From Dehalococcoidia bacterium (lineage in GTDB: Bacteria; Chloroflexota; Dehalococcoidia; UBA2979): a stretch of DNA of 64,000 bases. Location: assembly GCA_965247925.1 (NCBI GenBank), contig CBDFIB010000004.1, positions 288,539 through 352,538 of the forward strand, written 5' to 3'. Positions 23,380 to 52,153 of the stretch are shown piece by piece. A model generated the notes under the pieces. That model was not told the DNA's origin and ran no database searches. It was given only the letters and a program-made list of their open reading frames with translations. A program made the translations under genes and the position numbers. How positions within the stretch are numbered: position 1 is the first letter of the stretch; each line of letters opens with the position of its first letter.

Positions 23380-24603
23380 ATGAGCGAGGGCGCCCTCGAG
23401 GGACTGCGGATCCTCGACCTCACGCAGGGGGTCGCCGGCCCCTACTGCACCAAGCTGCTCAGCGACTACGGCGCCGACGTGCTCAAGATCGAGCGCCCCG
23501 AGGGCGGCGACCCGGCGCGCCGCGCCGGCCCCTTCCCCGACGACGAGCCGCACCCCGAGCGCAGCGGCCTCTTCCTCGATCTCAACACCGGCAAGCGCAG
23601 CCTCACCCTCAACCTCAAGACCGAGAGCGGGCAGCGGATCCTGCGCCGCCTCGCCTCCGACAGCGACGCCGTCGTCGAGAACTTCCGGCCCGGCACCCTC
23701 GCCCGGCTCGGCCTCAGCGAGGAGCAGCTCGCCGAGCTGAACCCCGCCACCGCGCTCGTCTCGATCTCGAACTTCGGGCAGCACGGGCCGTACCGCGACT
23801 TCGAGGCGGACGACATGCTGCTCTACGCGATGGGCGGCGGGCTCGCCATCACCGCCTACCCCGGCCGCGAGCCGAGTCGGCCCTGGCTCTACGCCCCGCT
23901 CTTCCTCGCAGGCGCGATGTCCGCCTCCTACAGCCTCGGCGCGATCACCTCGAGCGTGCGCTTCGGCGAGGGCGAGCGCGTCGACCTCTCGATCCAGGAG
24001 ATCCTCGCCAGCTCGCTCGACCGCGCCTCGCAGAACCTGATGGCCTACTCCTACGGTGGCGAGCTATTCGTCACCGAGAACTGCAACCTGCGCGCCAGCG
24101 CCTTCCCCAACGGCGTCTACGGCGGCCAGCTGCCCTGCAAGGACGGCTACGTCAACTTCCTCTGCTACCCCTACTGGTGGGACCGCTTCTGCCGCATGGT
24201 CGGCCGCGAGGACCTGATCGACGACAAGAGCTACTCCGACAACCTGCTCGACCCGGCGTTCGGGCCGCAGCTCGACGCGCTGATCTACCCCTGGCTGCTG
24301 GAGCGCACCAAGATCGAGGTGATGGACGCGGCGCAGGCGCAGGGCGTGCCCGTGGCCGCGCTCAACACCACCGCCGATCTCTTCGCCGACCGCCAACTGC
24401 GCGCGCGCGGCTACTTCGTCGAGCTCGACCACCCGGAGACCGGCCCTCGCGAGTACCCCGGCGCGCAGTTCAAGATGAGCGAGACGCCCGCCTCGATCCG
24501 CCGCGCGCCGCTGCTCGGCGAGCACACCCTCGAGGTGCTCACGGAGCAGCTCGGCTACACCCCCGAGGACGTCTCGATCCTGAGGCAGCGCAATGTCGTC
24601 TGA
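23380..24603 (+). CDS. family III CoA-transferase (CaiB/BaiF family)
   Basis: LRILDLTQGVAGPYCTKLLSDYGADVLKIERPEGGD N-terminal signature. Confidence 0.9.
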   Translation: MSEGALEGLRILDLTQGVAGPYCTKLLSDYGADVLKIERPEGGDPARRAGPFPDDEPHPERSGLFLDLNTGKRSLTLNLKTESGQRILRRLASDSDAVVENFRPGTLARLGLSEEQLAELNPATALVSISNFGQHGPYRDFEADDMLLYAMGGGLAITAYPGREPSRPWLYAPLFLAGAMSASYSLGAITSSVRFGEGERVDLSIQEILASSLDRASQNLMAYSYGGELFVTENCNLRASAFPNGVYGGQLPCKDGYVNFLCYPYWWDRFCRMVGREDLIDDKSYSDNLLDPAFGPQLDALIYPWLLERTKIEVMDAAQAQGVPVAALNTTADLFADRQLRARGYFVELDHPETGPREYPGAQFKMSETPASIRRAPLLGEHTLEVLTEQLGYTPEDVSILRQRNVV

Positions 24604-25957
24604 CGGAGCATCCGGCGCCGCGCCCGAACCCCGCCGCGAGACGCGGCTGCCCCTCGAGGGCGTGCGCGTGCTCTCGCAGGCGATCGTCTGGGCGGGGCCG
24701 GCGGCCAGCCTGATCCTCGCCGACCTCGGCGCCGAGGTGATCGAGATCGAGTCGATCCAGCACGTCAACCCGACGCGCTCGAACTATCGCAACCTGCCCG
24801 AGCTCTACCTGCAGGGCCCCTTCGGCGCGCTCTACACGGACCGCGACCCGAGCGAGGGCTTCTGGAACCGCAACGCCCACTTCAACTACTCGAAGCGCAA
24901 CCACAAGAGCATCACGCTGGACATCGAACGGCCCGACGGCATCGGGCTGCTGCGCGAGCTCGTGCGCGTCTCGGACGTCTACATCGAGAACAACGCCGTG
25001 GGCGTGGTCGAGAAGTTCGGGCTGGATTACCCGCGGCTCGCCGAGCTCAATCCGCGCATCATCCAGGCGCGCTTCCCCGGCTTCGGGACGACCGGCCCCT
25101 ACCGCAGATTCAAGGGCTTCGCCCCCACGATGGACGCGCTCGGCGGCCACACCTACCTGCGAGGCTATCGCGACAGCGATCCCTCCTTCACCCCCGGCCT
25201 CGCGCACGGCGACCCCAACGCCGGCATCCACGTCGCCTTCGCCGTCCAGGCCGCGTTGTTCGCGCGCGAGCGCACGAGCCGAGGGCAGATGATCGACCTC
25301 TCGCACGTCGAGGCCGGGCTGCACCACATCTCGTGGGCGCTGATGGACTACTCCTTCAACGGGCGCGTGCGGAGCACGTTCGGCAACCGTCACCCCTCGA
25401 AGGCGCCGAGCGGCGTCTTCCGCTGCGTCGACGCGCCGGGCGAGCAGACCGAGTCGAGCCGCCGCCGCTGGATCGCGATCGCCGTCGACAGCGACGAGCA
25501 GTTCGCCGCGCTCGCCGCGGAGATGGGCGCGCCGGAGCTGGCCGGCGACCCGCGCTTCGCCACCCTCGAGGCGCGCTACGAGGCCCAGGACGAGCTCGAG
25601 CCGCTGATCGAGGCGTGGACCTCGCAGCACGTAGCGCGCGAGCTGATGGAGCGGCTGCAGGCCGCGGGCGTGCCCGCCACGGAGCTGCTGCGTCAGGAGG
25701 AGCTGCGCGAAAACGAGCACCTGCGCGAGCGCGGCTTCTGGCAGGAGGTTGATCACCCGGCGGCGGGCACGCACAGCTACCCGGCCCCCGTCGCGCGCTT
25801 CCGCGAGCGCCCGCTGCGCATCCGCAGCCACGCCCCGCTGCTCGGCCAGCACAACCGCGAGGTGCTGCAGGACCTCCTCGGCGTCAGCGACGAGCGCTAC
25901 GCCCAGCTCCTCGACGCCGAGGTCATCGGCACCCGCTACCTCGACGACGCGACGTAG
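24593..25957 (+). CDS. family III CoA-transferase (CaiB/BaiF family)
   Basis: VRVLSQAIVWAGPAASLILADLGAEVIEIES. Overlaps the upstream paralog by 11 nt. Confidence 0.9.
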   Translation: MSSDGASGAAPEPRRETRLPLEGVRVLSQAIVWAGPAASLILADLGAEVIEIESIQHVNPTRSNYRNLPELYLQGPFGALYTDRDPSEGFWNRNAHFNYSKRNHKSITLDIERPDGIGLLRELVRVSDVYIENNAVGVVEKFGLDYPRLAELNPRIIQARFPGFGTTGPYRRFKGFAPTMDALGGHTYLRGYRDSDPSFTPGLAHGDPNAGIHVAFAVQAALFARERTSRGQMIDLSHVEAGLHHISWALMDYSFNGRVRSTFGNRHPSKAPSGVFRCVDAPGEQTESSRRRWIAIAVDSDEQFAALAAEMGAPELAGDPRFATLEARYEAQDELEPLIEAWTSQHVARELMERLQAAGVPATELLRQEELRENEHLRERGFWQEVDHPAAGTHSYPAPVARFRERPLRIRSHAPLLGQHNREVLQDLLGVSDERYAQLLDAEVIGTRYLDDAT

Positions 25958-26029
25958 CCGGGGGGCCGCGGGTATCTCAGACCAGCAGCATTCCTGGAGG
26001 TGAGATTGCCGGGCAGAGTCCTGCCTGGA

Positions 26030-26206
26030 TCATGACCAGAATCTGATCGCGGCCAAGATGACCGCTGTTGCGATTGAGATGATTCCGATGGAGTACGTGA
26101 GAAAGTGGCGTTCAAGCTCGGAGCGCATCTGCTGGAGATCGGCCTTCGTGGCAAGGTGCTCGTAGGCGCCTTCGAGGCGGGCAATGCGGTCGGATCCGGT
26201 TGTCAC
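26030..26206 (-). CDS. possible small membrane protein (GTG start); coiled N-terminus and C-terminal TM helix, XhlA-like
   Basis: GGAGGGG ribosome-binding site 6 nt before the GTG. VTTGSDRIARLEGAYEHLATKADLQQMRSELERHFLTYSIGIISIATAVILAAIRFWS. Not in the ORF track. Confidence 0.3.
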   Translation of the reverse strand: MTTGSDRIARLEGAYEHLATKADLQQMRSELERHFLTYSIGIISIATAVILAAIRFWS

Positions 26207-26261: not shown

Positions 26262-26621
26262 ATGCTTGATCAAGCGACGCCGGACGACGTCATCGAGCGG
26301 ATCGTCGAGGTAGTGGAGCCGGAGAAGATCATCCTCTTCGGGTCCACGGCCCGCGGCGACGCGGACGCCAACAGCGACATCGACCTGCTCATCATCAAGG
26401 AGGGAGCGGACGCGCTCGACCTCATGGCGCGCATCTACGGGAGGCTGCACGGCGTCGGAGCAGCGGTCGACGCGATCGTGGTCTCGCCCGATGACGTCGA
26501 GCGCTACAAGGACAGCCACGCACTGATCATCAAGCCCGCCGTCCACGACAGGCGCGACGCTACGAGACCTCGATCCCGATGCGACAGTGATCGCTGGGAC
26601 CCCACTGCTCCGGCTCGTTGA
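26262..26621 (+). CDS. minimal nucleotidyltransferase (MNT-type, Pol-beta superfamily); no HEPN partner recognised
   Basis: ILFGSTARGDADANSDIDLLI matches the GSxxRG...DxD nucleotidyltransferase motif. Confidence 0.65.
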   Translation: MLDQATPDDVIERIVEVVEPEKIILFGSTARGDADANSDIDLLIIKEGADALDLMARIYGRLHGVGAAVDAIVVSPDDVERYKDSHALIIKPAVHDRRDATRPRSRCDSDRWDPTAPAR

Positions 26622-27387
26622 TTGCTCGCACGCTCACAGAGTCGGCCAACCCCCTGGAGGCAAATACGAAATCCAGTTGCCGGGTCGCTGCAGCAGGACC
26701 CCCCTGCCGGACCGAGTAGTACGTGGGCACATTGGCGCTTCCTCGCGGAAGCTCCCTGGGCCATGGATCTGCCTGCCGACCGTGAGGGTGTTGAGGACCG
26801 ATGAAGGGCAGACCCAGCGCCTTCATCCTCTCGAACACCGTTCCGTAACGTAGGGCCCAGTATCGGTTCCCATGCTCCCCGTGACCGTGGAGGATGTTGA
26901 GGTCTCCGGCAGCCAGAATGCGATGGCCCCTCTGGCTCCCGATGAACGCGGACAGGTCCGAGACTACGCGATGAGCCGAGGCGTCCGAGACAATCCGTTT
27001 GCTGCCGGTGGATGCGTGGGGCCGCGTCCATAGCGAGTACATGGAAATGGCGACAAAGGGATCAACGTCGGGCGAGCTCACGACAGCTGCCGTGAGTGTG
27101 CCCTGACGGCTGACGGCGAACTCCCCGCCACCTGCATCCTCGAGCGGCCTTGCCTCGATCCACTCCACGCTGACGCGATCCGAGAGCTTTGCAATAGCCG
27201 TCCGCCACGGCCGGTTGCGCGCACCGGCGGTGCGCCAGGGGGCGGGATCCACGTCGACCTGGCTCGCGATCTCCGGCGGCGGTGCGCCGGCCTCCTGCAA
27301 GAGCGCGATGTCCGCATCCATGTCGATGAGGACACGCCAAGGCTCGCTCCGCTGCGCGACGTTCCAGGAGACTACCTTTACTGACAC
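26560..27387 (-). CDS. endonuclease/exonuclease/phosphatase (EEP) family protein
   Basis: VKVVSWNVAQRS start and C-terminal SDHCRIGIEVS are EEP hallmarks. Its 3' end overlaps the MNT ORF by about 60 nt. Confidence 0.8.
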   Translation of the reverse strand: MSVKVVSWNVAQRSEPWRVLIDMDADIALLQEAGAPPPEIASQVDVDPAPWRTAGARNRPWRTAIAKLSDRVSVEWIEARPLEDAGGGEFAVSRQGTLTAAVVSSPDVDPFVAISMYSLWTRPHASTGSKRIVSDASAHRVVSDLSAFIGSQRGHRILAAGDLNILHGHGEHGNRYWALRYGTVFERMKALGLPFIGPQHPHGRQADPWPRELPRGSANVPTYYSVRQGGPAAATRQLDFVFASRGLADSVSVRAINEPEQWGPSDHCRIGIEVS

Positions 27388-27403
27388 TTGACAGCCCTGC
27401 CCC

Positions 27404-28690
27404 TCAAACCCCCGCAGCAGCGTCCGGCACGTTGCGCGTGACGCCGAGGGCGGCGAGGTCGGCGATCTCGGAGTCGGAGAGGCCGGCGACGTCGCGCAGC
27501 ACCTCGGTGGTGTGCTCGCCGAGCAGCGGGGCGTGGCGCGGGGTCCAGCCGGGGGTGCGGCTGAGCTTGAAGGGGCGGCTGAGGTGCGGGATGCGGCCGG
27601 CCGCCGGGTGGGTCACCGGCTCCCAGAAGCCGCGCTCCACCAGTTGCGGGTCATCGAGCAGCGTGTCGCCGCGATGCACCATGCCGGCCGGGACGCCGAG
27701 CGCCTGCAGTTGCTCCATCGTCGCGCGCGGGTCGCGCTCGCGCGTCCAGGCGGCGATCAGCGCGTCCGCCTCGTCGTGGTGGCGGCGCCGCCCCAGCAGC
27801 GTCGCGAAGCGCGCGTCCGAGGCCAGTTCGGCGCCGCCGATCAGCTCCGCGAGGGCGCGCCACTCGGCGTCCGAGCGCACCGTGATCGCGATCCAGGCGT
27901 CCTCGCCCGCCGCCGGGTAGACGCCCTGCGGGGCATGGACCTCGTGGCGGTTGCCCTGCGGCCCGCGCGTGCGGCCGTTCATCGTGTAGTCCATCAGCAT
28001 CTCCGGCACGATCGAGGTCGTGACCTCGCGCTGCGAGAGGTCGACGAACGAGCCCTCGCCCGTGCGGTCGCGGCGGCGCACGGCGGCGAGGATCACGCCC
28101 ACGCCGAGCATCGCCACCACCGGGTCGGGGAAGAAGGTGCCGGAGCTGGTCGGCGGGCCGTCGCGGTAGCCCGTGATCGAGGCGATGCCCGCCGTCTGCT
28201 CGAGGATCGCGCCGTAGGAGCCGTACTCGCGCTCCGGCCCGGTCGCGCCCTGGCTGGAGAAGGAGACGTAGACGATGTCCTGCTTCACGGCGCGCAACGC
28301 CTCGTAGCCCGCGCCGAGGCGATCGAGCACGCCGAAGCGGTAGCTCTCCGCGACCACGTCCGAGGCGGCGACGACGCGCTTCAGCGTCGCGATGCCCTCG
28401 GGCATGGTGAGGTCCAGGCAGATCCCGCGCTTGCTGCGGTTGCGGTCGTTGAACAGCCCCGCGCGGTTCCACGGCTCGGGGCCGGGGTCGTCGTTGGGGT
28501 AGATCGCGGTGCTGCCCTGCGGGTTGGGGTCGCCTCGCGCGGTGTCCGTGCGGCGGCCGGACTCGACCTTGATCACGTCGGCGCCCATGTCGCCGAGCAG
28601 CTTGAGCGCCAGCGGCCCCGCCCAGACCTGCGAGAGGTCGACGATGCGCAGCCCCTCGAGGGCGCCCAGTCCGTGTGGCTCAGCCGTCAC
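27404..28690 (-). CDS. family III CoA-transferase (CaiB/BaiF family)
   Basis: LRIVDLSQVWAGPLALKLLGDMGADVIKVES. The GTG start overlaps the stop of the upstream paralog. Confidence 0.9.
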   Translation of the reverse strand: MTAEPHGLGALEGLRIVDLSQVWAGPLALKLLGDMGADVIKVESGRRTDTARGDPNPQGSTAIYPNDDPGPEPWNRAGLFNDRNRSKRGICLDLTMPEGIATLKRVVAASDVVAESYRFGVLDRLGAGYEALRAVKQDIVYVSFSSQGATGPEREYGSYGAILEQTAGIASITGYRDGPPTSSGTFFPDPVVAMLGVGVILAAVRRRDRTGEGSFVDLSQREVTTSIVPEMLMDYTMNGRTRGPQGNRHEVHAPQGVYPAAGEDAWIAITVRSDAEWRALAELIGGAELASDARFATLLGRRRHHDEADALIAAWTRERDPRATMEQLQALGVPAGMVHRGDTLLDDPQLVERGFWEPVTHPAAGRIPHLSRPFKLSRTPGWTPRHAPLLGEHTTEVLRDVAGLSDSEIADLAALGVTRNVPDAAAGV

Positions 28691-29895
28691 TAGATCACCC
28701 CCGCGCCACGCATCCGCGCGAGGTCGGCGGCGCTACAGCCAAGCAGCTCGCCGTAGACCTCGGCGTTGTGTTCGCCGAGGAGCGGCGCGCGCCGCAGCGG
28801 CGGGCGCTCCGTGCCGAAGCGCAGCGGCAGTCCGGGGTAGAGCAGCGGCCCCGTCGCCGGGTGGTCGATCTCGCTGAAGAACTCGCGCTCGATGAACTGC
28901 GGCGACTCGATCAGGTCGGGCGCGGTGCAGACGTAGCCGGCCGGCGTCTGCACGCCCTGCACCGCGTGGTAGAGGTCCGCCTTGCGCTTGCCCGCGGTCC
29001 ACTCGGCGATGACCTCGCGCAGCTCGTCCATGTGGTCGCGGCGCTGGCGCGCGCCCTCGAAGCGCGGATCGTGCTCGATATCCGGCCGTCCGATCAGCTC
29101 GCAGAAGCGCGGCCAGCGGGCCTGCGGGAACATCAGCCCGAGGTAGCCGTCTTCTACCTCGAACATCGGCGCGTGGCCGGGGCCTCGAACGCGAATCTCG
29201 CGCTTGTAGGCCCAGGCCGCGCCCGGGTACTCCTGTGCGGTCGCGATGCCCTCGAGCATCGAGACGTCGACGTGCTGGCCCTCGCCGCCGCTCGCGTCGC
29301 GGTAGTGGAGCGCGAGCAGCGCGCCGCTGAAGGCGGAGAGGCCGGCGAAGAACTGCGCGGGGCGCCCGCCGATCTTGAGCGGCTCGCGGTCATCGTCCCC
29401 GGCGATGTAGAGCGAGCCGCCGAGGGCGAGCGCCGTCAGGTCCGTCGCCTGCCAGTCGCGGTAGGGCCCGCTCTGCCCGTAGTCCGTGGTCGAGACCACG
29501 ATCACGCCCGGCCGCGAGTCCCCGATCGTCGCTGCGCGCGTCGCCTCGAGCGCCTCGTAGCCGAGCCCCCAGGCGTCGAGGCGGCCGGGCGCGAAGTCCT
29601 CGATCACGATGTCGGCCCAGCCGGCGAGCCGCTTGCCGAGCGCGCGCCCGGAGGCCTGCGCGAGGTCGAGCGTGACGCTGCGCTTGCCGGTGTTGAGGTA
29701 GAGGAAGAGGCCGCTCAGCTCGGGGTGCGGGTCGTCGTCGGGGAACGGCGGGTAGGAGCGCGCACGGTCGCCACGGCCCGGCGCCTCGACGCTGATCACG
29801 TCCGCGCCGAGCGCCGCCAGCAGCTTCGTGCAGAACGGCCCGGCGATGCCCTCGGACAGGTCGAGGACGCGCACGTCGTCAAGTGCCTCGGCCAT
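28690..29895 (-). CDS. family III CoA-transferase (CaiB/BaiF family)
   Basis: From the internal ATG at 29895 (GGAGGGAGG ribosome-binding site): MAEALDDVRVLDLSEGIAGPFCTKLLAALGADVISVEAPGRGD. The upstream part of ORF 28690..30252 is Arg-rich and spurious. Confidence 0.85.
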   Translation of the reverse strand: MAEALDDVRVLDLSEGIAGPFCTKLLAALGADVISVEAPGRGDRARSYPPFPDDDPHPELSGLFLYLNTGKRSVTLDLAQASGRALGKRLAGWADIVIEDFAPGRLDAWGLGYEALEATRAATIGDSRPGVIVVSTTDYGQSGPYRDWQATDLTALALGGSLYIAGDDDREPLKIGGRPAQFFAGLSAFSGALLALHYRDASGGEGQHVDVSMLEGIATAQEYPGAAWAYKREIRVRGPGHAPMFEVEDGYLGLMFPQARWPRFCELIGRPDIEHDPRFEGARQRRDHMDELREVIAEWTAGKRKADLYHAVQGVQTPAGYVCTAPDLIESPQFIEREFFSEIDHPATGPLLYPGLPLRFGTERPPLRRAPLLGEHNAEVYGELLGCSAADLARMRGAGVI

Positions 29896-29978
29896 CGAGC
29901 CTCCCTCCGCGGCGTTCACCTTATACCGCAGGCCGGCGCAAGCCGCGGCCCGCCCGCAGCAGGCGCGGCGCGAGCCGC

Positions 29979-32389: not shown

Positions 32390-32821
32390 TCAGCGAATAG
32401 GCGGCTCGTGCGCGAACGGGTTGATCACGGCGACGGTGTCGATCTGCTGCCCGTCATTGAGGTCTTCCGTCAGCAGATGCGTACAGCCACTGCGCTGGGC
32501 GGCGGCGACGATCAGCGCGTCCCAGTGGGAAAGCTGCGCAGCCTCCCCGATCTCAAGGGCGCGCAGAACCAGATCGGTGTCAATCGGCTGCGGGCTCCAG
32601 GCCAGGAGGTCCTCGATATCGGCGCGGGCCTCCACCGGCGACAGCCGGGCTTCGAGCCGACGGGTGACAGTGACGTAGTACTCGTTCAGCACCTGCGCGC
32701 TGATCCGCCCTTCGGCCGACGACCAGAGGTGTTCCAGCCACGCCTGAGCGCGCTCCTGTTTGGCGGGGTGGTCGCTGTCCCGCGCGTACACGAGGACGTT
32801 GGTGTCGACGAAGATGCTCAC
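32390..32821 (-). CDS. vapC: PIN-domain toxin VapC
   Basis: MSIFVDTNVLVYARDSD...THLLTEDLND, with conserved acidic residues. Confidence 0.85.
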   Translation of the reverse strand: MSIFVDTNVLVYARDSDHPAKQERAQAWLEHLWSSAEGRISAQVLNEYYVTVTRRLEARLSPVEARADIEDLLAWSPQPIDTDLVLRALEIGEAAQLSHWDALIVAAAQRSGCTHLLTEDLNDGQQIDTVAVINPFAHEPPIR

Positions 32822-41353: not shown

Positions 41354-42573
<1,220 letters not shown>

Positions 42574-42585
42574 CGCCGCGCCTCG

Positions 42586-43590: not shown

Positions 43591-43809
43591 ATGCGGCCAA
43601 CTCTTGACCTCATGGCGTCCGCCATCGAGTCGAAAGGCCGTTATGCGTCGGTCCCGGAAGCTTGCTGGTGCGGGGGTGCCTGCCGTCTCCGCCGAGGACG
43701 CGGACTCGCTCGCGGGAGCCGCCGATGCGGGTGCGGCTGAACGAGTGCCCCGCCCGCGCCGCCGTGAGGGCCGCGCGTTGGTCGGGCGAGTCTCAAGGTT
43801 GACCGGCCT

Positions 43810-43966
43810 TAGCAGGCTGCTGAAAAACTCCTGATCCTGAGCCGTAAGGTCTCACTGGCCATTCGGTGGGCTGGCGTAGAGCCCAGAAACATTGGGGTTT
43901 TCGATGTCGCGACCAGCGCGATTTCAGCCCAAAAGCGCCGCCGCGGACTTTTTCATCACCCTGTTA
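43810..43966 (-). repeat. MITE-like element copy C; its terminus overlaps the left end of IS1380 copy 2 by ~3 nt
   Basis: TAGCAGGCTGCTGAAAAACTCC...GGACTTTTTCATCACCCTGTTA, then the IS left end TTAGCCCTGATCC. Confidence 0.7.
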
Positions 43967-45629
43967 GCCCTGATCCACCGAAGAAGAGCGTGCGAGCGGC
44001 TGCGGTTGGGTGCTCCGCTGTAGCTGGGACAATGGGTTTTGACAAATCACGTACCAGCGACAGGGAGCACCCATTCGATGCTACCAACGAGCGACCCCGA
44101 CCGGATAGACATCGCCTTCGACGACCACCGCCTGGTGGCCGATGCGGGGCTGCTCCTCCCGGCCACGCTCGCCCAGCATCTCGGTTTGCAAGAGCTCGCC
44201 GACAGCTACCTCGACCTCGGTGACGCGGCGGGGCGCGCGAACGCCGGCGACAAGCTGCTGACCCTGGCCGCCTCGGCGCTCGCGGGCGGCGACTGCATCG
44301 ACGACGCCGCTGCGTTGCGCTCAGGCGGCGCCGGGCGCGTGCTCGGCTGCACCGTGAAGGCGCCGTCCACCCTCGGGACCTTCCTGCGCAGCTTCAGCTG
44401 GGGCCACGTCCGCCAGCTCGACCGCCTCAGCCGCGAGTTGCTCGCCCGCGGCTGGGCGGCCGGGGCGGGACCCGGCGATGCGCCGTTCACGATCGACCTC
44501 GATTCGACGCTCTGCGAGACCTACGGCCTGGCGAAGGAGGGCGCCCGCCAGCCCGGCTACAGCGGCGCGCGCGGCTATCACCCGCTGCTCGCGGTGGCGG
44601 CCGGGACGGGCGAGGTGCTGATGGCGCGGCTGCGCGAGGGCCGCGCGCACACCGCCCGCGGCGCCGCCCACTTCCTGCGTGAGACGGTGGCGCGGGTGCG
44701 CGAGGCCGGGGCGTCGGGGCAGCTCACGGTGCGCGCCGACAGCGGCTTCTACACCCACGCCGTCGTCGCCGCCTGCCGCGCGCTGGATGTCCGCTTCTCA
44801 ATCACCATTCGCCAGCAGCCGAGCGTACGCCGGCTGATCGAGGCGATAGCGGAAGAGGACTGGACGCCGATCCCGTACTGGCTGCCGGGCGGCGCCGATG
44901 TCGCCGAGACGACCTACACGCCGTTCCAGCACAAGGAGGATGCCACCCCGGTGCGGCTCATCGTGCGGCGCGTCAAGCCGGCGCCCGGCTCACAGCTCGC
45001 GCTCTTCGTGAACTATAGCTACCACGCCTTCATCAGCGATCGCGCCGGAGAGATGATGGAGCTGGAGGCCGACCATCGCCGCCACGCCGAGATCGAGAAC
45101 GCGATCCGCGATCTCAAGTACGGCGTCGGGCTGAACCATCTCCCCTCGGGCCGCTGCACCGCGAACGCGGCGTGGCTCGCGGTGCAGGTGATCGCGCACA
45201 ACCTCGCCCGCTGGACGGCGCGCCTCGGGCTCGGCGAGGGAATCGTGACGACGAAGACGCTCAGGCGGCGCTACTTCGCTCTCGCCGGACGGCTCACCCA
45301 TTCTGCCCGGCGCTGGACCCTGCACCTCCCGAAGCGCTGGCCCTGGGCCGCCCAGTGGACAGCCGCGCTCGCGCGACTCCGGGCGCTACCGCTCCCCGCC
45401 TCACGCCCCGCCCACAGTGCTGGCCCCGGGTCCGAGGCTCGCACCAGCATGCCCGCGCACGCCTCGCGCACCCTCGCGCCCTCGCTCAGCGCCCCCGAGC
45501 GGCGCTGAGCGAGGGCTCCTCGCTCCGCTCCGCCCGCGCCGCCGCCTGGCGAACGCCGCCACACCCGCCGAACTCTCCGCCAGCCCGGCATCCCGCCCTG
45601 TCAAGCTTCGATCGGTGGATTCGGGCTTA
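43964..45629 (+). mobile_element. IS1380-family-like insertion sequence, copy 2 (inverted relative to copy 1)
   Basis: About 99% identical to 9272..10937 over ~1666 bp, including both terminal repeats. Confidence 0.8.
44039..45508 (+). CDS. DDE transposase, IS1380/IS4-superfamily-like (second copy)
   Basis: 489 aa, 2 aa different from copy 1. Confidence 0.85.
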   Translation: MTNHVPATGSTHSMLPTSDPDRIDIAFDDHRLVADAGLLLPATLAQHLGLQELADSYLDLGDAAGRANAGDKLLTLAASALAGGDCIDDAAALRSGGAGRVLGCTVKAPSTLGTFLRSFSWGHVRQLDRLSRELLARGWAAGAGPGDAPFTIDLDSTLCETYGLAKEGARQPGYSGARGYHPLLAVAAGTGEVLMARLREGRAHTARGAAHFLRETVARVREAGASGQLTVRADSGFYTHAVVAACRALDVRFSITIRQQPSVRRLIEAIAEEDWTPIPYWLPGGADVAETTYTPFQHKEDATPVRLIVRRVKPAPGSQLALFVNYSYHAFISDRAGEMMELEADHRRHAEIENAIRDLKYGVGLNHLPSGRCTANAAWLAVQVIAHNLARWTARLGLGEGIVTTKTLRRRYFALAGRLTHSARRWTLHLPKRWPWAAQWTAALARLRALPLPASRPAHSAGPGSEARTSMPAHASRTLAPSLSAPERR

Positions 45630-46212
45630 GTTTGCCGGCCAAGAACTCGCTGATGGTCTCCTTGGTCGGAGGGTGACCGGATATCTCCGTCACGGCATCG
45701 GTGAGGAGGTCGATGATCAGTCCCTCGGGATCGCTCAGAACTTTCTCCCAAGCTTCCGGCAGTGCACCGCGAGCGCGACGCTCACGCTCAATCTGCCGGA
45801 ACTCTCCACGTGCCTCCTCCAGCGCCGCTCCACTGGCCATAGCCGCGCGACCGAGGAAGCGCTGTAGAGATGCAGCCACATCCGCTGCCGACTGCGTGAG
45901 GAAGTCTAGGCTCAAGAACCGCCGCTGCTCCCAGGGGCTTCCGGTTTCCCCAGGCAGGTAGAGCCACCAGACGAGACCGTCGGTCAGCGCAGCGAGATCC
46001 GCACCCTCGTCGAAGGCATAGCCAAGCAGTTGTACCTGATGTTCCGTCAGGTCGGTGCCCGCGCTCTTCACCTCGATCAGCACGCGCGGACGGTGCTCGG
46101 ACTTGAGACAGTAGTCCACTTTTCGTCCATCCCGAACGCGGTGCTCGCGGGCGACTTCGTCAGGATTGAACGTGTTCCAGCCCAGCGCCCCGATGACAGG
46201 ATTCACCGCCAT
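45601..46212 (-). CDS. PD-(D/E)xK nuclease-like protein (HsdR-N-terminal-like); 3' end replaced by the IS1380 terminus
   Basis: VDYCLKSEHRPRVLIEVKSAGTDLTEHQVQLLGYAF...LTDGLVWWLY. The last ~9 codons and the stop fall inside the IS end (45601-45629). Confidence 0.55.
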   Translation of the reverse strand: MAVNPVIGALGWNTFNPDEVAREHRVRDGRKVDYCLKSEHRPRVLIEVKSAGTDLTEHQVQLLGYAFDEGADLAALTDGLVWWLYLPGETGSPWEQRRFLSLDFLTQSAADVAASLQRFLGRAAMASGAALEEARGEFRQIERERRARGALPEAWEKVLSDPEGLIIDLLTDAVTEISGHPPTKETISEFLAGKLSPNPPIEA

Positions 46213-46349
46213 TTCGCGCGTTGCCTGCTCGCTGCCCTGCGAAAGTCAATCCGCGCAATCTGAGAACTCAGGGTTTCGAGGTCGGAGAGGTCCGGCATGG
46301 CGCGGAGTCTACCGCTTATGCGCCGCCCGGCGGGTGCACCCCACTTCGA

Positions 46350-46784
46350 TCAGCGGACCGGGCGGCGGTCGCGGACGATCTCCGTGAGGATGCCGTTGGC
46401 CGAGCTGGGGTGGAAGAACGAGGCGGTGATGTCCTCGATCGGCTCGCCGAAGTCGATGTAGCGCAGGCCGTTGTCGATGAACTGCTTCGTGTCGGCGATC
46501 ACGTTGTCGCTGCCGTAGCCGATGTGGTGCAGCCCCGGCCCGCGGCGATCGAGGTAGCGGCCGATGCCGCTCTCGGCGTCGTCGGGCAGCAGGATCTCCA
46601 GCTTCGTCTCGCCGAGGCCGACCCGGACGAAGAAGATGCGCGTGCGCTCCGGGGCGAAGTAGCCGCCCTCGGGCATCGGCGCGCGCTCGATGTCCCACGC
46701 GAGGCCGAGCTTCTCGACGAGCACGTCGCCGGCTTGCTCGAGGCTATGCGACACGATGCCGATGTGATCGACGTAGGTGATCAT
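46350..46784 (-). CDS. VOC-family protein (methylmalonyl-CoA epimerase / glyoxalase-like)
   Basis: From the internal ATG (GAAGGAGG ribosome-binding site): MITYVDHIGIVSHSLEQAGDVLVEKLGL... Confidence 0.8.
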   Translation of the reverse strand: MITYVDHIGIVSHSLEQAGDVLVEKLGLAWDIERAPMPEGGYFAPERTRIFFVRVGLGETKLEILLPDDAESGIGRYLDRRGPGLHHIGYGSDNVIADTKQFIDNGLRYIDFGEPIEDITASFFHPSSANGILTEIVRDRRPVR

Positions 46785-46966
46785 CCCATCCTCCTTCGCG
46801 CGGTCGCCGCCGGGGCGCATGCGAAGACTACGGGTTTCCAAGGGGCGGGCGGTTGCCCACCACGCGCCCGCCTTCGCACCCATCAGGTCGCGCACGGTGC
46901 CGGTGCAGCGCCCGCCGCCGTATACTCGCGCCGCACACGAGGGCTCCCCGGCCGGCCGGAGGCGTC

Positions 46967-49462
46967 ATGGGCGAACTCGAAGCGCCGCTGACCGGCATCC
47001 GCGTGCTCGATCTCGGGCAGGCCGCCGTCGGACCGGTGGCCGCCGAGTACCTCGCGTGGCTCGGTGCCGACGTGATCAAGGTGGAGTCGCCCGATGGCGA
47101 CATGGTGCGCCGCACCCGGCCCGAGCTGCGCGGCATGGGCCACACCTTCCTCGGCAACAACCTCGGCAAGCGCGGCATCGTGCTCGACCTCAAGCAGCCC
47201 GAGGAATTCGCGCGCGCCGAGGACCTGATCCGCACGGCCGACGTGCTGGTCGAGAACTTCCGCTCGCCCGCCGTGATGGAGCGGCTCGGCCTCGGCTGGG
47301 AGCGCCTGCGCGAGCTCAACCCGCGCCTCGTCTACCTGCAGAGCTCCGCCTTCGGCCCGGTCGGGCCGATGGTCGGGATGACCAGCAACGAGTGGTTCTC
47401 GCAGGCCGCGGGCGGCGCGACCAGCCTCAACGGCCAGCCCGGCGGACCGCCCGAGTTCTCGCGCGGGACGCCCTCGATCGACTGGAACGGCGCGGCCGTC
47501 AACCTTGAGGCGCTGCTCGTCGGGCTGTGGGTGCGCGAGCGCACCGGCCGCGGGCTGCGCATCCAGAACTCGCAGCTGCAGTCGACCATGTTCGGCGCGA
47601 CCACGCGCATCGCCGAGTTCCTCGCGACCGGCGAGCCGCCGCTGCGGCTCGGCAGCGCGCGCAGCAACATCGTGCCCGACCAGTCGTTCGCAACCGCCGA
47701 GGGCTACGTGGCCGTCAGCGCGCTCAACCAGCGGCTCTGGACGCGGCTCTGCGAGGTCCTCGAGCACCCGGAACTGGCGGCCGATCCGCGCTTCGCGAGC
47801 AACGCGCTGCGCGTCGAGCATCGCGAGGCGCTGATCCCGCTGCTGGAGACGGCCTTCGCCGCGCGGCCCGCCGACGAGTGGGTGGAGCGGCTGCGCGCCG
47901 CCCGCGTGCCCGCCTCCGAGGTGCGGACGGGCTTGCCGCTGATCGAGGGCCTGCTGGCGCATCCGCAGGCGAGCGGGCAGCGCTTCCTCAGCGTCATGGA
48001 CACGCCCTGGGGCGACATGGGCACGGCCGAGCCGCACTGGCGCTTCGACAAGACGCGCGCGCGCATCACCGGCCCTTCGCCGGCGCAGGGCCAGCACACC
48101 GAGGAGGTGCTCGGCGCGCTCGAGGGCGAACTCGCGGCGGTGCAGGCGCCGGCCCCCGCCGCGACCAACGGCGCGCGCGGCAACGGCGCACAGAGCAACC
48201 GGGGAGAGGTCGACAGCGACGCGACGCCCGCGCCCGCCCTCGCGGGACTGCGCGTCCTCGATCTCTCGCAGGGCGTCTCCGGGCCGATCTGCGCGATGCA
48301 ACTCGGCGACCTCGGCGCGGACGTGATCAAGATCGAGCCGCCCGGGGGCGACTGGATCCGGGAGGTCGGACCCTTCCATACGCCCGAGGACGGCGAGCCG
48401 GAGAGCGCGCTCTACCTGCAGCTCAACCGCAACAAGCGCGGCATCGCGCTCGACCTCAAGTCCGCCGAGGGCAAGACCGTCCTCGAACGACTGCTCGCCG
48501 GCGCCGACGTGCTGATCGAGGGCTACCGCCCGGGCGTGATGGATCGCCTCGGCCTCGGCTACGAGGAGCTCTCGGCGCGCTATCCGCGGCTCGTCTACCT
48601 CTCGATCAGCGGGCAGGGCGCCGAGGGGCCGCTGGCCGAGGCGCCCGCGAGCGAGCTGGACGTGCAAGCCGTCGTCGGCTCCAACCGGCACCTCGGCCGC
48701 GCCTCCGAGCCGCCGCTGCGCTACGGCTACGACCTCGCCTCGGTGGGTGCGGGCATCGCCGGCGTGCACGGGGTGCTGACGGCGCTGCTCTGGCGCGAGC
48801 GCAGCGACCTCGGGCAGCACGTGCAGACCTCGCTGCTGCAGGCCTTCATCGCGATGCACCAGTGGACGATCAGCGCCGAGCTGGCCGTCGAGGACCGCGT
48901 CGGCCGCCCGCTCACCGGCGCCGACGAGGAGCCCGACCACGGCTTCGAGACCGCCGACGGCCACGCACTGATCACGATGCGCGGCGACGAGGGCGCCTGG
49001 GCGAAGTTCCTGATCGCCATCGACCGTCCCGAGGTGCTCCTCGATCCACGCTACGAGGCGCCGGACAGGCTGATGCGCAACCTGCACCTGCTGCCGCCGC
49101 TGGTGAACGACCGCACCCGCGAGATCCCCTTCGAGGAGCTGCGCAAACTCGTGCAGGACGAACTCGGCTACACGATCGTGCGCATGCACGACCTGCGCTC
49201 GCTGCTCGCGGACGCGCAGACCGAGGCGCTGGAGATGGTGCAGACGATCGAGGGGCATCGGACGCTCGGCTCGCTGCGCACGCTCAACGTGCCCTGGGGC
49301 TTCGAGGACGGACTCGCCTCGCTGCGCCTCCCGCCGCCACTGCTCGGCCAGCACAGCGCCGAGCTGCTCGCCGAGGCCGGCTACGGCGAGGCAGAGATCG
49401 CCCAGCTCGCGGAGTCCGGCGCGGTCCGGCTCACCCCGCTGGCGGCGCTCGCCGGGGCCTAG
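46967..49462 (+). CDS. fused di-domain family III CoA-transferase (two complete CaiB/BaiF modules in one ~831-aa polypeptide)
   Basis: Module 1 IRVLDLGQAAVGPVAAEYLAWLGADVIKVESPDGD; module 2 LRVLDLSQGVSGPICAMQLGDLGADVIKIEPPGGD. The two are joined by a low-complexity linker (AAVQAPAPAATNGARGNGAQSNRGEVDSDATPAPA). Confidence 0.8.
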   Translation: MGELEAPLTGIRVLDLGQAAVGPVAAEYLAWLGADVIKVESPDGDMVRRTRPELRGMGHTFLGNNLGKRGIVLDLKQPEEFARAEDLIRTADVLVENFRSPAVMERLGLGWERLRELNPRLVYLQSSAFGPVGPMVGMTSNEWFSQAAGGATSLNGQPGGPPEFSRGTPSIDWNGAAVNLEALLVGLWVRERTGRGLRIQNSQLQSTMFGATTRIAEFLATGEPPLRLGSARSNIVPDQSFATAEGYVAVSALNQRLWTRLCEVLEHPELAADPRFASNALRVEHREALIPLLETAFAARPADEWVERLRAARVPASEVRTGLPLIEGLLAHPQASGQRFLSVMDTPWGDMGTAEPHWRFDKTRARITGPSPAQGQHTEEVLGALEGELAAVQAPAPAATNGARGNGAQSNRGEVDSDATPAPALAGLRVLDLSQGVSGPICAMQLGDLGADVIKIEPPGGDWIREVGPFHTPEDGEPESALYLQLNRNKRGIALDLKSAEGKTVLERLLAGADVLIEGYRPGVMDRLGLGYEELSARYPRLVYLSISGQGAEGPLAEAPASELDVQAVVGSNRHLGRASEPPLRYGYDLASVGAGIAGVHGVLTALLWRERSDLGQHVQTSLLQAFIAMHQWTISAELAVEDRVGRPLTGADEEPDHGFETADGHALITMRGDEGAWAKFLIAIDRPEVLLDPRYEAPDRLMRNLHLLPPLVNDRTREIPFEELRKLVQDELGYTIVRMHDLRSLLADAQTEALEMVQTIEGHRTLGSLRTLNVPWGFEDGLASLRLPPPLLGQHSAELLAEAGYGEAEIAQLAESGAVRLTPLAALAGA

Positions 49463-49963: not shown

Positions 49964-50374
49964 CTACTCCGGCGCCCTCGGATCGACGTAGTTGAGGCGG
50001 TGGGCGAACTTCCAGCCCTCGGCGGTGCGCACGTAGACATCGTCGTACCAGCCGGTGGCGAGGATGCGCGCGCGCGAGACGCCGGTCGTCGCGATCGTCA
50101 CCAGGAACATCGCCTTGCCGCGCACGCTGCCGTCCTCGGACGGGTCCTGCAGGCGGATGTTGGAGACCAGGTGCCGGCGTGGCGTCGGTTCCTCGACCCA
50201 GCGGTTGCGCACCAGCTCGCGGATCGCCTCGCGGCCCTGCACCTCGCTGCCGGCGCGGCCGAAGACGGCGTCCTCGCTGAACAGCGCCGCGAAGGCGTCG
50301 TAGTCGCCGCTGTCGAAGGTGTAGCAGTAGTCCGTGATCAGATCGTGGATCGCCAGCCGGTCCGCGGGGTCCAT
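49964..50374 (-). CDS. SnoaL-like / NTF2-fold protein
   Basis: 136 aa, HDLITDYCYTFDSGDYDAFAALFSEDAVF. Confidence 0.75.
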   Translation of the reverse strand: MDPADRLAIHDLITDYCYTFDSGDYDAFAALFSEDAVFGRAGSEVQGREAIRELVRNRWVEEPTPRRHLVSNIRLQDPSEDGSVRGKAMFLVTIATTGVSRARILATGWYDDVYVRTAEGWKFAHRLNYVDPRAPE

Positions 50375-50517: not shown

Positions 50518-51643
50518 ATGTCGATTCGCGGGAAAGCGGCGATCGTCGGGTTCCATGAGATCCCGACGCTGCGCCAGTACGGCGAGCGCAGCACCCACGG
50601 CCTGCTCGCCGAAGTTGCTCGCGGCGCGATCCGCGACGCCGGGTTGCGCATCGAGGACATCGACGGCCTGATCACGCGCGAGGACTCCAACTCGCTCGAG
50701 GTCTGCGAGGCGCTGGGTATCACGCCCCGCTACACCTCCTCGATGACGGTGCACGGGGCCAGCGGCGCCGCCTCCGTTCTGACGGCGGCCATGGCCGTCG
50801 CCTCTGGCGTCGCAACCAACGTGCTCTGCATGCTCGGCCAGTCGCGGCCGGCGAGCGCCACGCGGCTGGAGGCCGGAGCGGGCGCGCGCGGCGGCGGCGG
50901 CCCCGCCAACACTCCTCACCGAGTGGGAGGCGCCCTTCGGCACCGTGATCGCCGCCAACGGCGGCTACGGCATGATCAAGGCGCGCCACATGCACGAGTT
51001 CGGCACCACACAGTAGCAGTTCGCGAAGTGCGCCGTCGACCAGCGCTTCAACGCGCTGCAGAACGAGAACGGGCTCTGGAAGGAGCCGATCACGATCGAC
51101 GATGTGGTCAACTCGCGCTACGTCAACGATCCGCTGCACCTGCTGGAGTGCGTGATGCCCTGCTCCGGCGCGAACGCGGTGATCGTCACCACCGCGGAGC
51201 GCGCCGCCGCGCTGCCGAACCCACCCGTCTACATCCTCGGCGTGGGTGGGCCGGCGACGAGCCACAGCGTGGTCTGGCAGAACGACAACGTCACCACCAC
51301 CCCGGTGGTCCAGTCCGCGCCCACGGCGCTGCAGATGGCGCAGTACAGCGCGAGCGACATGGAGTTCGCGCAGTTCTACGACTGCTACACGATCCTCGCG
51401 ATGATGTGCCTGGAGGACGCCGGGATCTGCCCGAAGGGCGAGATCGGGCCATTCTACGAGAGCACGGACACCACCTACGAGGGCGAGTTCCCGATCAACA
51501 CCGACGGCGGCCAGATCTCGGCCGGCCAGCCCGGCGGCGGCGCCGGCGGCTTCCGCCACGTGGTGGAGGCGACCCGCCAGATCATGGGGCGCGCCGGGGT
51601 GAGGCAGGTGAAGAAGGACGATCTCTGCCTTGTCAATGGCTGA
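50518..51643 (+). pseudogene. SCP-x-type thiolase gene with a frameshift (near 50880-50915) and an in-frame TAG at 51014
   Basis: N-terminal part MSIRGKAAIVGFHEIPTLRQYG... in frame 1. The continuation TEWEAPFGTVIAANGGYGMIKARHMHEFGTTQ*QFAKCAVDQRF...VNDPLHLLECVMPCSGANAVIV... is in frame 2. Confidence 0.7.
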
Positions 51644-51733
51644 GGCGGCACCGGCAGCGTCATGACGACGCTGGTGCTCGGTTCGGGCGCCACCCTCTAA
51701 CCCACGAAGCAAGCGAGAACACCGAGGTCCACG

Positions 51734-52153
51734 ATGGCCGAATACACCAAGCCCCTCCCGCGACAAGCCGACCCGGCGCTGACGCAGCCCTTCTGGGATG
51801 CGGCCAAGCGCCACGAGTTGATCATCCCGCGCTGCCTCCAGTGCGGTCGCCACTTCTGGTACCCGCGGCAGGCGTGCCCGCACTGCCTCAGCCCGGACTG
51901 GGAGTGGACGAAGGCGAGCGGCCACGGCCGCCTGCACACCTACACGATCGTGCGCCAGCCCCAGAACCCCGCCTTCAACGACGACGTCCCCTACGCCTAC
52001 GCGATGGTGCAGCTCGACGAGGGCGTCCGCATGATCTCCAACCTCGTCGACGTCGAGGTTCCCGACGGGGTGAAGATCGACATGGAGCTCGAGGTGACCT
52101 GGGACGACGTCACCGAAGAGTGGACGCTGCCGCGCTTCCGTCCCGCGGAGTAG
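51734..52153 (+). CDS. DUF35 zinc-ribbon / OB-fold protein (usual partner of SCP-x thiolases)
   Basis: CLQCGRHFWYPRQACPHCLS zinc ribbon followed by an OB-fold region. Confidence 0.85.
   Translation: MAEYTKPLPRQADPALTQPFWDAAKRHELIIPRCLQCGRHFWYPRQACPHCLSPDWEWTKASGHGRLHTYTIVRQPQNPAFNDDVPYAYAMVQLDEGVRMISNLVDVEVPDGVKIDMELEVTWDDVTEEWTLPRFRPAE

Follow-up and report, generated by a model that had tools for sequence, protein, structure and literature searches.

A 64-kb stretch of DNA from a Dehalococcoidia bacterium (contig CBDFIB010000004.1, positions 288,539 to 352,538; hereafter the window, numbered from its first base) contains an accumulation of genes for family III (CaiB/BaiF) coenzyme A (CoA) transferases, raising the question of whether they serve one catabolic pathway, as was originally predicted for positions 23380-52153, or several. 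G+C content is ~70 % across the whole window, and the raw list of open reading frames (ORFs) is consequently crowded with spurious overlapping frames; genes were called from third-position GC (GC3) and annotated with Pfam and NCBIfam. The best reading of the result is a conserved accessory region, a mosaic of CoA-activation modules amid active insertion sequence (IS) elements. With a probability of about 0.55, slightly better than even, we consider that this ~43-kb stretch (9.3-52.2 kb), which is enclosed by housekeeping genes, holds several independent catabolic modules and not one pathway, and that its seven CoA-transferase domains correspond to four enzymes.

Six genes within 29 kb contain seven PF02515 domains, each covering the whole profile (positions 1-366 of 366); the E-values range from 2e-87 to 3e-99 for single-domain genes, and a gene of 831 amino acids (aa) reaches 1.8e-184. 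The six CaiB/BaiF genes of the original prediction are thus all present, including the fused di-domain gene, and we refer to them as CT1 (23380-24603, plus strand, PF02515 2.3e-87), CT2 (24593-25957, plus, 1.2e-96), CT3 (27404-28690, minus, 2.7e-99), CT4 (28690-29919, minus, 1.1e-91), CT5 (29979-31262, minus, 1e-94) and CT6 (46967-49462, plus, two full domains). The predicted grouping of three transferases with a cyclase likewise holds: cyclase, CT5, CT4 and CT3 form one minus-strand block, separated in this order by gaps of 27 bp and 59 bp and then a 1-bp overlap. Mutual identity among the seven domains is 25-39 %, and the closest pairs are CT1 with CT4 (37 %) and CT2 with CT3 (39 %), a pattern suggesting that a unit of two genes was duplicated long ago.

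Clustering of these genes exceeds chance; as an illustration rather than a measurement, about 40 paralogues placed at random in a 3.5-Mb genome would give ~0.3 per 29-kb interval. Operon structure accounts for most of the clustering: four of the genes are arranged as two pairs, one is a fusion and one stands alone. Their number, which had been called unusual, is less so, because expansions are documented in SAR202 Chloroflexota and tandem runs of four occur in another Dehalococcoidia metagenome-assembled genome (MAG). None of the paralogues reaches an NCBIfam equivalog cut-off among the formyl-CoA, oxalate, carnitine, succinate-glutarate, mesaconate and mesaconyl-CoA isomerase models. The Frc model gave 143-203 bits for single-domain genes and 331 for CT6 (cut-off 504), the succinate-glutarate CoA-transferase model 158-226 and 347 bits (cut-off 750), and the mesaconyl-CoA isomerase model 35-77 bits (cut-off 725). 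Every score of a single-domain gene is below half the cut-off, and CT6, which sums two domains, still falls short. Since all equivalog scores lie this far below their cut-offs, the earlier description of the locus as uncharacterised CoA-dependent catabolism is fair.

The canonical catalytic position (Asp169 of Frc) separates the domains into types. It holds Asp in CT1 (motif EADDMLLYAMGG), CT4 and CT5, Glu in both the N-terminal and the C-terminal half of CT6 (CT6N and CT6C), Ala in CT2 and Gly in CT3, the last two having an acid four residues downstream. CT1-CT2 and CT4-CT3 are built alike, with the Asp-bearing gene upstream, the Asp-less gene downstream and start and stop codons overlapping, by 11 bp between the stop of CT1 and the start of CT2 and by 1 bp between the stop of CT4 and the start of CT3. 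The top PDB match of both Asp-less genes is chain B (9fn0_B) of BbsEF, the succinyl-CoA:(R)-benzylsuccinate CoA-transferase, at 220 bits for CT2 (next structure 166) and 245 bits for CT3 (next structure 175), while 9fn0_A scores ~90 bits with either. At the position of the catalytic Asp, chain A of 9fn0 has Asp and chain B has Gly, like CT3; four residues downstream, CT2 has Asp, CT3 and its orthologues have Glu, and chain B has Asn. CT4 aligns to 9fn0_A with the Asp kept (TDLTALAL versus SDLTCSAL), LEQTAG is conserved in CT3, and many CT3 homologues are labelled 'BbsF subunit' by JGI annotation. Placing the paralogues by profile, as had been proposed, reached no characterised clade, but it did yield this BbsF-like signal for CT2 and CT3; CT1, CT4 and CT5 found only generic neighbours in the PDB.

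The residues at the catalytic position and the matches to 9fn0_B together mean that in each coupled pair the first gene encodes a subunit with the Asp and the second a BbsF-like subunit without it, of BbsEF chain-A type and chain-B type, respectively, in CT1 and CT2. At the level of sequence, this shows CT1+CT2 and CT4+CT3 to be predicted two-subunit transferases of the BbsEF kind. The arrangement is kept over large distances. In all three distant contexts sampled (L091, L092 and L093), the CT3 homologue, at 50-61 % identity, is a Gly-type gene with an acid-bearing CT4-like gene (44-50 %) directly upstream, and L087 and L062 encode the CT4 and CT3 types as a single fused ORF. Near the pair in L091 there are also a CT5-like gene, an acyl-CoA dehydrogenase (ACAD) and an enoyl-CoA hydratase. 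CT5 itself, with the canonical Asp, is a predicted solo enzyme.

The fused gene CT6 comprises an N-terminal half (1-~410), a linker of ~35 aa that tolerates indels among relatives, and a C-terminal half. At least 120 clusters of full-length homologues (~800 aa) share 43-97 % identity with it; their MAGs carry the labels Chloroflexota, Binatia, Methylomirabilota and Deltaproteobacteria, and the Glu at the catalytic position of both halves is kept in distant homologues. CT6N-like and CT6C-like proteins are also encoded by adjacent separate genes, in nine pairs (L004, L005 (two), L015, L039, L040, L042, L043 and L054), and the type is fused in nine loci (the window, L008, L009, L010, L012, L028, L045, L054 and L066), the N-type being always upstream of the C-type, split or fused. 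This gene-fusion evidence argues that the two CT6-type polypeptides act together, showing CT6 to be a putative covalently fused pair of two further subfamilies. Large CaiB families are common: on the chromid of Cupriavidus metallidurans, for example, a tblastn search with CT6 gave hits at 21 or more positions.

CT6 lies close to genes for a thiolase and its DUF35 partner. The DUF35 gene (51734-52153, plus, zf-ChsH2 and OB_ChsH2_C domains; PF01796 5e-21, PF12172 1.1e-13) is intact, as the predicted SCP-x thiolase and DUF35 pair would require, but the SCP-x-type thiolase (50518-51643, plus) is a pseudogene, with Thiolase_C_1 (1.7e-38) matching its 3' ORF only. Compared with the intact 374-aa orthologue in L008, it has a frameshift (+1 T at 50913) and a nonsense codon (GAG to TAG at 51014-51016). 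We rejected a 405-aa minus-strand ORF across this segment (50720-51937) as spurious, given its low GC3 and lack of a Pfam match; the real genes are on the plus strand. Between CT6 and the thiolase is a SnoaL_4 (NTF2-like) gene (49964-50374, minus, PF13577 1.3e-24), which has the same position in L008. On the other side, divergent from CT6, is a vicinal oxygen chelate (VOC) or methylmalonyl-CoA-epimerase-like gene (46350-46895, minus, PF13669 7.6e-12), at 60.6 bits with TIGR03081 under the 115-bit cut-off. A 1-bp indel in this VOC gene relative to all four relatives (BLAST alignment) puts its start or intactness in doubt.

The first gene of the cyclase-CT5-CT4-CT3 operon, in which CT3 is last, encodes a cyclase-family protein (31290-32252, minus; PF04199 6.3e-17, 62.6 bits versus a 23.1-bit cut-off). 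It belongs to a large uncharacterised subfamily, with 3443 homologues at E<=1e-10, many of them ~50 % identical in Binatia, Dehalococcoidia and actinomycetes, and with invariant Q102, Q106, D108 and H112 in the segment LQGSSQWDxLRH. A profile search of the PDB returned 5IBZ, deposited as 'uncharacterized protein', as the sole relative. KynB, a kynurenine formamidase, has the His-rich metal motif HxGTHxDxPxH; LQGSSQWDxLRH may be its equivalent with two His replaced by Gln, which we offer as a lead only.

To see what travels with these genes, we used 76 species-representative loci anchored on cyclase homologues outside the window's clade. A CT6-type pair or fusion occurs in nine of them, eight of which also have an SCP-x thiolase and DUF35 (within 2 kb in seven), compared with 17 of the 67 loci lacking a CT6-type pair (one-sided Fisher p = 4e-4 for this cyclase-anchored set). 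Cyclase, fused CoA-transferase, thiolase and DUF35 stand side by side in L009, and L004 has the cyclase, two CoA-transferase genes, DUF35 and thiolase. The cyclase lies <=300 bp from a thiolase/DUF35 pair in 18/76 loci. A tight tie of the cyclase to CoA-transferases everywhere was considered and rejected: a CoA-transferase gene is <=300 bp away in one of the 76 loci and anywhere within 10 kb in 24, making thiolase/DUF35 the tighter partner. In the window's clade the ancestral module appears to have split, leaving the cyclase with CT5, CT4 and CT3, and CT6 with thiolase/DUF35 ~15 kb away.

A variant of the association is seen in Amycolatopsis tucumanensis (L046, 4280-19358), where a long overlapping operon runs from hydantoinase A and hydantoinase B through an AMP-forming ligase, cyclase, SCP-x thiolase and DUF35 to luciferase-like, POR-like/DUF6537, FAD oxidase and zinc-dependent alcohol dehydrogenase genes. 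Here the ligase occupies the slot that the CoA-transferase pair fills in Chloroflexota, a swap consistent with an activation step that precedes thiolysis. Some hydantoinase A/B enzymes are ketone carboxylases, whose products are 3-oxoacids. The cyclase-thiolase-DUF35 core recurs in several loci of Amycolatopsis, Nocardia and Pseudonocardia, with flanks annotated in L046 only. Together, the associations suggest a scheme in which a free (3-oxo)acid is formed, thioesterified and then cleaved thiolytically. We found no description of a cyclase, DUF35, thiolase and CoA-transferase module in the open-access literature searched.

Cyclase and CT6 homologues assign the window to an uncultured lineage of the Dehalococcoidia (Chloroflexota). 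How the region is kept was followed in six related loci, L001 and L008 from ENA metagenome assemblies (L008 on a 3.58-Mb contig) and L011, L012, L013 and L014 from species-representative genomes. The synteny in related genomes that the original prediction proposed to compare is indeed present: L008, L011, L012 and L013, aligned at the DNA level with 85-97 % identity, share the order phosphotriesterase (PTE)-like gene, hydrolase, CT1, CT2, a variable slot, CT3, CT4, CT5, cyclase, PIN and a major facilitator superfamily (MFS) gene, followed further along by two MFS_3 genes, a second slot, VOC, CT6, SnoaL, thiolase, DUF35 and fructose-1,6-bisphosphate (FBP) aldolase/phosphatase. In L001, the closest relative at 97 % identity, this order breaks down past the MFS_3 genes and riboflavin genes come next. 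We considered L001 as evidence that the CT6 module is unlinked and rejected this, because the other four show linkage to be the common state and L001 is the rearranged genome.

The two slots, at 26.5-27.4 kb and 40.7-46.3 kb, differ in content among relatives. The first, between the CoA-transferase blocks (26262-27387), has an NTP_transf_2 gene (26262-26621, plus) and a weak Exo_endo_phos ORF (26560-27387, minus) by Pfam; in L001, window positions 26550-27399, essentially the Exo_endo_phos ORF, are replaced and the NTP_transf_2 gene is kept. The replacement includes a gene for an ATP-grasp enzyme of MvdD type (L001 15530-16498), a ligase of microviridin-like ribosomally synthesised and post-translationally modified peptides. 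The second slot (40706-46346) contains a C-terminal ACAD fragment, an ACAD (41350-42573, minus), an ORF (42586-43590, minus), an IS (43964-45630) and a further ORF (45601-46212). In L012 the VOC gene lies ~490 bp from MFS_3 instead; L008 has CinA, methyltransferase, DUF402, HSDR_N and a second VOC, and L011 only an N-terminal ACAD remnant. It follows from these differences that ACAD 41350 is not a stable part of the locus. The orphan 31-aa fragment at 40981-41073 (minus), just downstream of the intact ACAD, matches the ACAD C-terminus and looks like a rearrangement scar at the variable slot.

In pairwise comparisons of the window with its relatives, all CT genes have Nei-Gojobori dN/dS values of 0.10-0.38, alongside 0.08-0.19 for the cyclase, 0.08 for DUF35 (versus L008) and 0.10 for the FBP aldolase/phosphatase (FBPase). 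The CT genes are thus under purifying selection and predicted to be functional, and they are syntenic in five or more related Dehalococcoidia genomes. Single members are nevertheless lost: CT5 is cleanly absent from L013 and has a 7-bp frameshift in L012, and CT3 in L001 has a 1-bp frameshift and is called as 358 + 78 aa. Since CT5, CT3 or the thiolase is lost or broken in individual genomes despite selection, the region appears to be kept as separable parts. Its sub-modules also recur independently in distant genomes, the CT4-CT3 unit apart from the CT6 and thiolase/DUF35 unit.

If the locus is a set of separate modules built from four enzymes, each heteromer would have one kind of active site and would probably activate a free, likely substituted, di- or keto-carboxylic acid, with CoA taken from succinyl-CoA or another acyl-CoA and no ATP spent. 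In the CT6 module, thiolase/DUF35 would cleave the resulting 3-oxoacyl-CoA and regenerate the acyl-CoA donor, following the logic of BbsEF and the benzoylsuccinyl-CoA thiolase BbsAB minus the intervening hydratase and dehydrogenase. The cyclase-family metal hydrolase, the PTE-like protein, the amidohydrolase and the alpha/beta hydrolases may supply the free acids by opening lactone, lactam and ester bonds, and the MFS transporters may import substrates or export dead-end products.

Several observations weigh against this picture. The association statistics come from loci that were anchored on the cyclase and are not phylogenetically independent, and a CoA-transferase is so rarely next to the cyclase in them. 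CT6 is intact in the window while its thiolase partner is a pseudogene. A 3-oxoacid as substrate was deduced from an absence, because neither an enoyl-CoA hydratase nor a short-chain dehydrogenase/reductase (SDR) is present among the genes scanned. That the subunits form heteromers is a deduction from the order of the genes, from fusions and from resemblance to a single heteromer of solved structure. Furthermore, the Asp-less subunits may not be catalytically dead, because an acid is conserved four residues downstream, and the chemistry of CT6 could differ, because both of its halves have Glu instead of Asp.

Each part of this reading meets a rival. The most direct is the one originally predicted, that the whole 23-52 kb is a single pathway passing CoA between successive intermediates of one substrate. 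The hydrolases, transferases, thiolase and transporters could in principle form one route, all genes are under purifying selection, and the PTE-to-DUF35 order is kept in L008 and L011-L013. Yet the genes, read from both strands, fall into six or more transcription units, no regulator is seen among those annotated, and the stretch is interrupted by two variable slots of unrelated content and by IS and toxin-antitoxin insertions. ACAD 41350 is not conserved at its position, CT5, CT3 or the thiolase is dispensable in one relative or another, synteny with L001 ends after the MFS_3 genes, and the CT4-CT3 and CT6-thiolase/DUF35 units occur separately in distant genomes. A single coherent pathway of 29 kb is therefore very unlikely, and the separate modules fit better. 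That the region is instead a decaying island, its paralogues redundant leftovers of little current function, we consider highly improbable. The thiolase pseudogene, the broken or deleted CT3 (L001) and CT5 (L012, L013), the ACAD fragment, the IS110 remnant and the apparently recently active IS copies all speak of decay, but all seven domains are full length in the window, dN/dS of every CT gene is like that of the cyclase and not far from that of FBPase, and synteny persists across genomes diverged to 85-90 % DNA identity.

Two further rivals concern the enzymes themselves. Most characterised family III enzymes are homodimers, and the tandem genes could be independent homodimeric transferases for different substrates, their adjacency a matter of duplication history only; the acid one helical turn away in CT2 and CT3 might even replace the Asp. 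We judge this distinctly unlikely, because the closest solved relative of CT2 and CT3 is the Asp-less subunit of a two-chain complex, because the pairs keep their order and coupling even between distant relatives and in some cases are fused, and because the partners, at ~30 % identity, are old and not recent tandem duplicates. Somewhat less unlikely, though still improbable, is that at least one paralogue is not an intermolecular CoA-transferase and acts as a racemase or epimerase (AMACR-like), an Mct-like intramolecular transferase, a DddD-like transferase/lyase or a PtmU4-like sulfur transferase. Family III covers all of these activities (in part, PMC6006322, PMC9196870), CT6 shares the two-domain architecture of DddD and PtmU4, with Glu not Asp, SAR202 CoA-transferases with best matches to DddD are on record (PMC5395668), and an epimerase-like VOC gene adjoins CT6. 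However, racemase structures are among the weakest PDB matches (~90 bits), the mesaconyl-CoA isomerase scores are under their cut-off (35-77 versus 725 bits), the annotated genes of the window include no ddd or ptm neighbours, and CT6 homologues, common in MAGs labelled Binatia and Methylomirabilota, travel with thiolase/DUF35.

Beyond the locus, two linked proposals can be made, which we hold jointly only as tentative and rather doubtful. One is that a cyclase-family protein with the Q-Q-D-H signature, a two-subunit or fused CoA-transferase (an AMP-forming ligase in actinomycetes) and thiolase/DUF35 may constitute a widespread uncharacterised route of three steps, in which a ring or amide would be opened to a 3-oxo acid, the acid thioesterified, and the thioester cleaved thiolytically with the CoA donor recycled. 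The three-part association is seen in loci labelled Chloroflexota, Binatia and Rhodospirillales, and its ligase variant in Actinomycetota. The other is that family III heteromers with one Asp-less subunit may be the common form of the family in these phyla, not peculiar to anaerobic toluene degraders.

The remaining genes of the accessory region are mostly transporters, hydrolases and mobile elements. The two ACADs that had been predicted at 14168 and 41350 are real, as are the four MFS genes. The first ACAD forms a plus-strand block (14168-17568) with an alpha/beta hydrolase (15409-16269) and an MFS_3 gene (16324-17568), and is 72 % identical in DNA to ACAD 41350; a third ACAD is at 3450-4622. 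An MFS_1 gene (33126-34379, minus, PF07690 6e-47) is syntenic in L001, L008 and L011-L013, and two tandem MFS_3 ('transmembrane secretion effector') genes (37789-39057 and 39433-40701, plus) are 77 % identical at the DNA level. A minus-strand operon encodes a nitroreductase (18341-18964), a haloacid dehalogenase (HAD) family hydrolase (19021-19701), an amidohydrolase (19733-20989) and a carboxymuconolactone decarboxylase (CMD)-like protein (20986-21369). It is followed by the PTE-like gene (21478-22419, plus) and an alpha/beta hydrolase (22413-23267, minus), both assigned with Pfam and syntenic with CT1 in L011-L013. The amidohydrolase, nitroreductase, HAD, CMD, PTE, hydrolase and VOC genes named in the original prediction are thus real, but the majority of the hydrolase genes, at 14-23.3 kb, precede the 23380-52153 interval to which they had been assigned.

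Several features had escaped that prediction: the IS copies, an IS110 gene and remnant, three toxin-antitoxin-like modules, the nucleotidyltransferase gene and the pseudogene status of the thiolase. Two 1667-bp IS copies with a DDE_Tnp_1_4 transposase (9270-10936, minus, by Pfam and self-BLAST, and 43964-45630 by self-BLAST) are 99.5 % identical and inverted, and flank 33 kb with most of the CoA-transferase genes. They appear recently active and could act as an inversion substrate or a composite element. An IS110 transposase gene lies at 11163-12437, and an IS110-family remnant (36014-37513, plus) has its transposase split into two ORFs, matching PF01548 and PF02371 separately; it is an insertion relative to L001, which is contiguous there. 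The sole match in an Rfam scan of the window, to the IS-associated Ms_AS-4 small RNA model (37087-37168, 59 bits), is inside this remnant and probably reflects conserved IS110 sequence, and a tRNA scan of the window found none. A repeat of ~150 bp, 96-98 % identical, occurs at 11084-11235, 39138-39295 and 43810-43967, two copies being beside the IS copies (one abutting, one ~150 bp off) and one between the tandem MFS_3 genes; it looks like an element of the repetitive extragenic palindrome or miniature inverted-repeat transposable element kind (REP/MITE-like) or a preferred IS target. A short repeat, 75-85 % identical, is found at 40759-40973, at 61574-61770 and in L001 at 2906-3049, at the exact break of synteny with L001.

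Toxin-antitoxin-like genes include a Gp49/HigB and helix-turn-helix (HTH) module (17615-18306) and a PIN-domain toxin (32390-32821, minus, PF01850 7.5e-15), for which a small upstream ORF (~32818-33129) is likely the antitoxin; L001 has the same pair of a 103-aa protein and PIN. On the left border, between dnaE and an ACAD, a DUF4411 gene followed by an HTH and Peptidase_M78 (IrrE-like) gene (1671-3364, minus) resembles a toxin-antitoxin or defence-type pair. The left border genes are dnaE, prs and secA (5767-8361). Adjoining the IS110 gene, an ORF of 429 aa with tetratricopeptide repeats (12618-13907) has a GC3 of ~0.65-0.75 versus >0.9 in its neighbours and is probably a recent acquisition. 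The right border consists of the FBP aldolase/phosphatase (52610-53707, PF01950 1.2e-168), Mur ligase, fabF and tsaD, with a DUF1122 gene at 53847-54563. The first of these is of class V, a type typical of archaea and deep-branching bacteria. Among close and distant homologues, L014, P0200, P0316, P0331 and P0336 belong to MAGs called, for instance, 'SB0662_bin_38', 'Candidatus Entotheonellaceae' or 'Tectomicrobia', and these names hint at a sponge-associated or similar habitat for part of the gene pool.

Family III CoA-transferases rank with the enzyme families of Chloroflexota that are most expanded and least understood, and in SAR202 they have been invoked for the oxidation of recalcitrant dissolved organic matter. 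Many apparent paralogues may be subunits of two-component or fused enzymes, with one catalytic and one Asp-less subunit, often tied to thiolase/DUF35. In that case there would be fewer distinct enzymes than paralogue counts imply, and heterologous expression of single genes, the usual approach, would be expected to fail. Three units lend themselves to biochemical work, namely CT4+CT3, CT1+CT2 and CT6, the last alone or together with thiolase/DUF35; the practical gain stays modest as long as no substrate is found. The CaiB/BaiF expansion in Chloroflexota was already known, and the degree of paralogy here is in line with SAR202 (PMC5395668); what our analysis adds is the subunit logic, in which two pairs are split and BbsEF-like, a third is fused and one enzyme is solo, together with the repeated association of CT6-type pairs, split or fused, with thiolase/DUF35 and the cyclase subfamily.

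Compared with known systems, the genes resemble Frc/YfdW, SUGCT, YfdE, CaiB and Mct in belonging to the same fold family, with the catalytic Asp kept in CT1, CT4 and CT5, but the curated equivalog models for those enzymes all score far below cut-off. SmtAB of Chloroflexus, a member of the Chloroflexota, is a two-subunit family III succinyl-CoA:(S)-malate CoA-transferase with a dicarboxylate substrate and may be a further parallel; the window offers no context of the 3-hydroxypropionate bi-cycle. SAR202 genomes, from the same phylum and a class-level neighbourhood, similarly combine many CoA-transferase paralogues with MFS transporters and oxidative and hydrolytic enzymes, with 62 CaiB/BaiF proteins in five single-cell genomes, interpreted as an ATP-free entry of diverse acids into CoA pools (PMC5395668). 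There, however, paralogues were counted per genome, and two-subunit units, fusions and the cyclase/thiolase/DUF35 linkage were not described (PMC5395668).

CT6 shares with DddD and PtmU4, the characterised members of the two-domain type III class, a single polypeptide of ~800-830 aa with two tandem CaiB-like domains and a poorly conserved linker (PMC6006322; PMC7174347). It differs in having Glu in both halves, split versions elsewhere and the company of thiolase/DUF35. No ddd neighbours (BCCT transporter, dddB/C, LysR regulator) occur among the annotated genes of the window or L008-L010, and no ptm neighbours among those of the window. A tblastn search of plasmids with CT6 for annotated dddD returned only single-domain CaiB genes, matched by both halves and all at <60 % identity. 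None of the 120 best CT6 homologues is named DddD, so that CT6 is set apart from DddD by names and neighbourhood.

The closest parallel is BbsEF, reported as an alpha2beta2 complex. As in 9fn0, two family III subunits are encoded by adjacent genes, one with Asp and one with Gly at the catalytic position, CT2 and CT3 being closest to chain B and CT4 aligning to chain A with its Asp kept. Identity is only moderate, though, and CT2 and CT3 have an acid at +4 where 9fn0_B has Asn. The bbs operon of benzylsuccinate beta-oxidation, with the ACAD BbsG, the enoyl-CoA hydratase BbsH, the SDR BbsCD, BbsAB and a link to bssABC, is not matched by the window: bss genes are missing, the pairs have no dehydrogenase, hydratase or SDR of the BbsG/H/CD type beside them, the genes scanned in the window gave no enoyl-CoA hydratase or SDR match, and the ACADs are not adjacent to the BbsEF-like pairs. 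The organism, moreover, is of a Dehalococcoidia MAG lineage and is not known to degrade toluene, and the substrate almost certainly differs from that of BbsEF. Thiolase/DUF35 here is linked to CT6 and not to the BbsEF-like pairs, and the thiolase is a pseudogene with cyclase-family, SnoaL and VOC genes nearby instead of a hydratase or dehydrogenase. What is shared with BbsAB is a thiolase that adjoins DUF35 and has a family III CoA-transferase, fused or of two subunits, as a genomic partner. The CoA-transferase of the Bbs pathway uses as its donor the succinyl-CoA that the thiolase releases (PMC10818641), and by analogy the product of a thiolase/DUF35 pair could be the CoA donor in the CT6 module.

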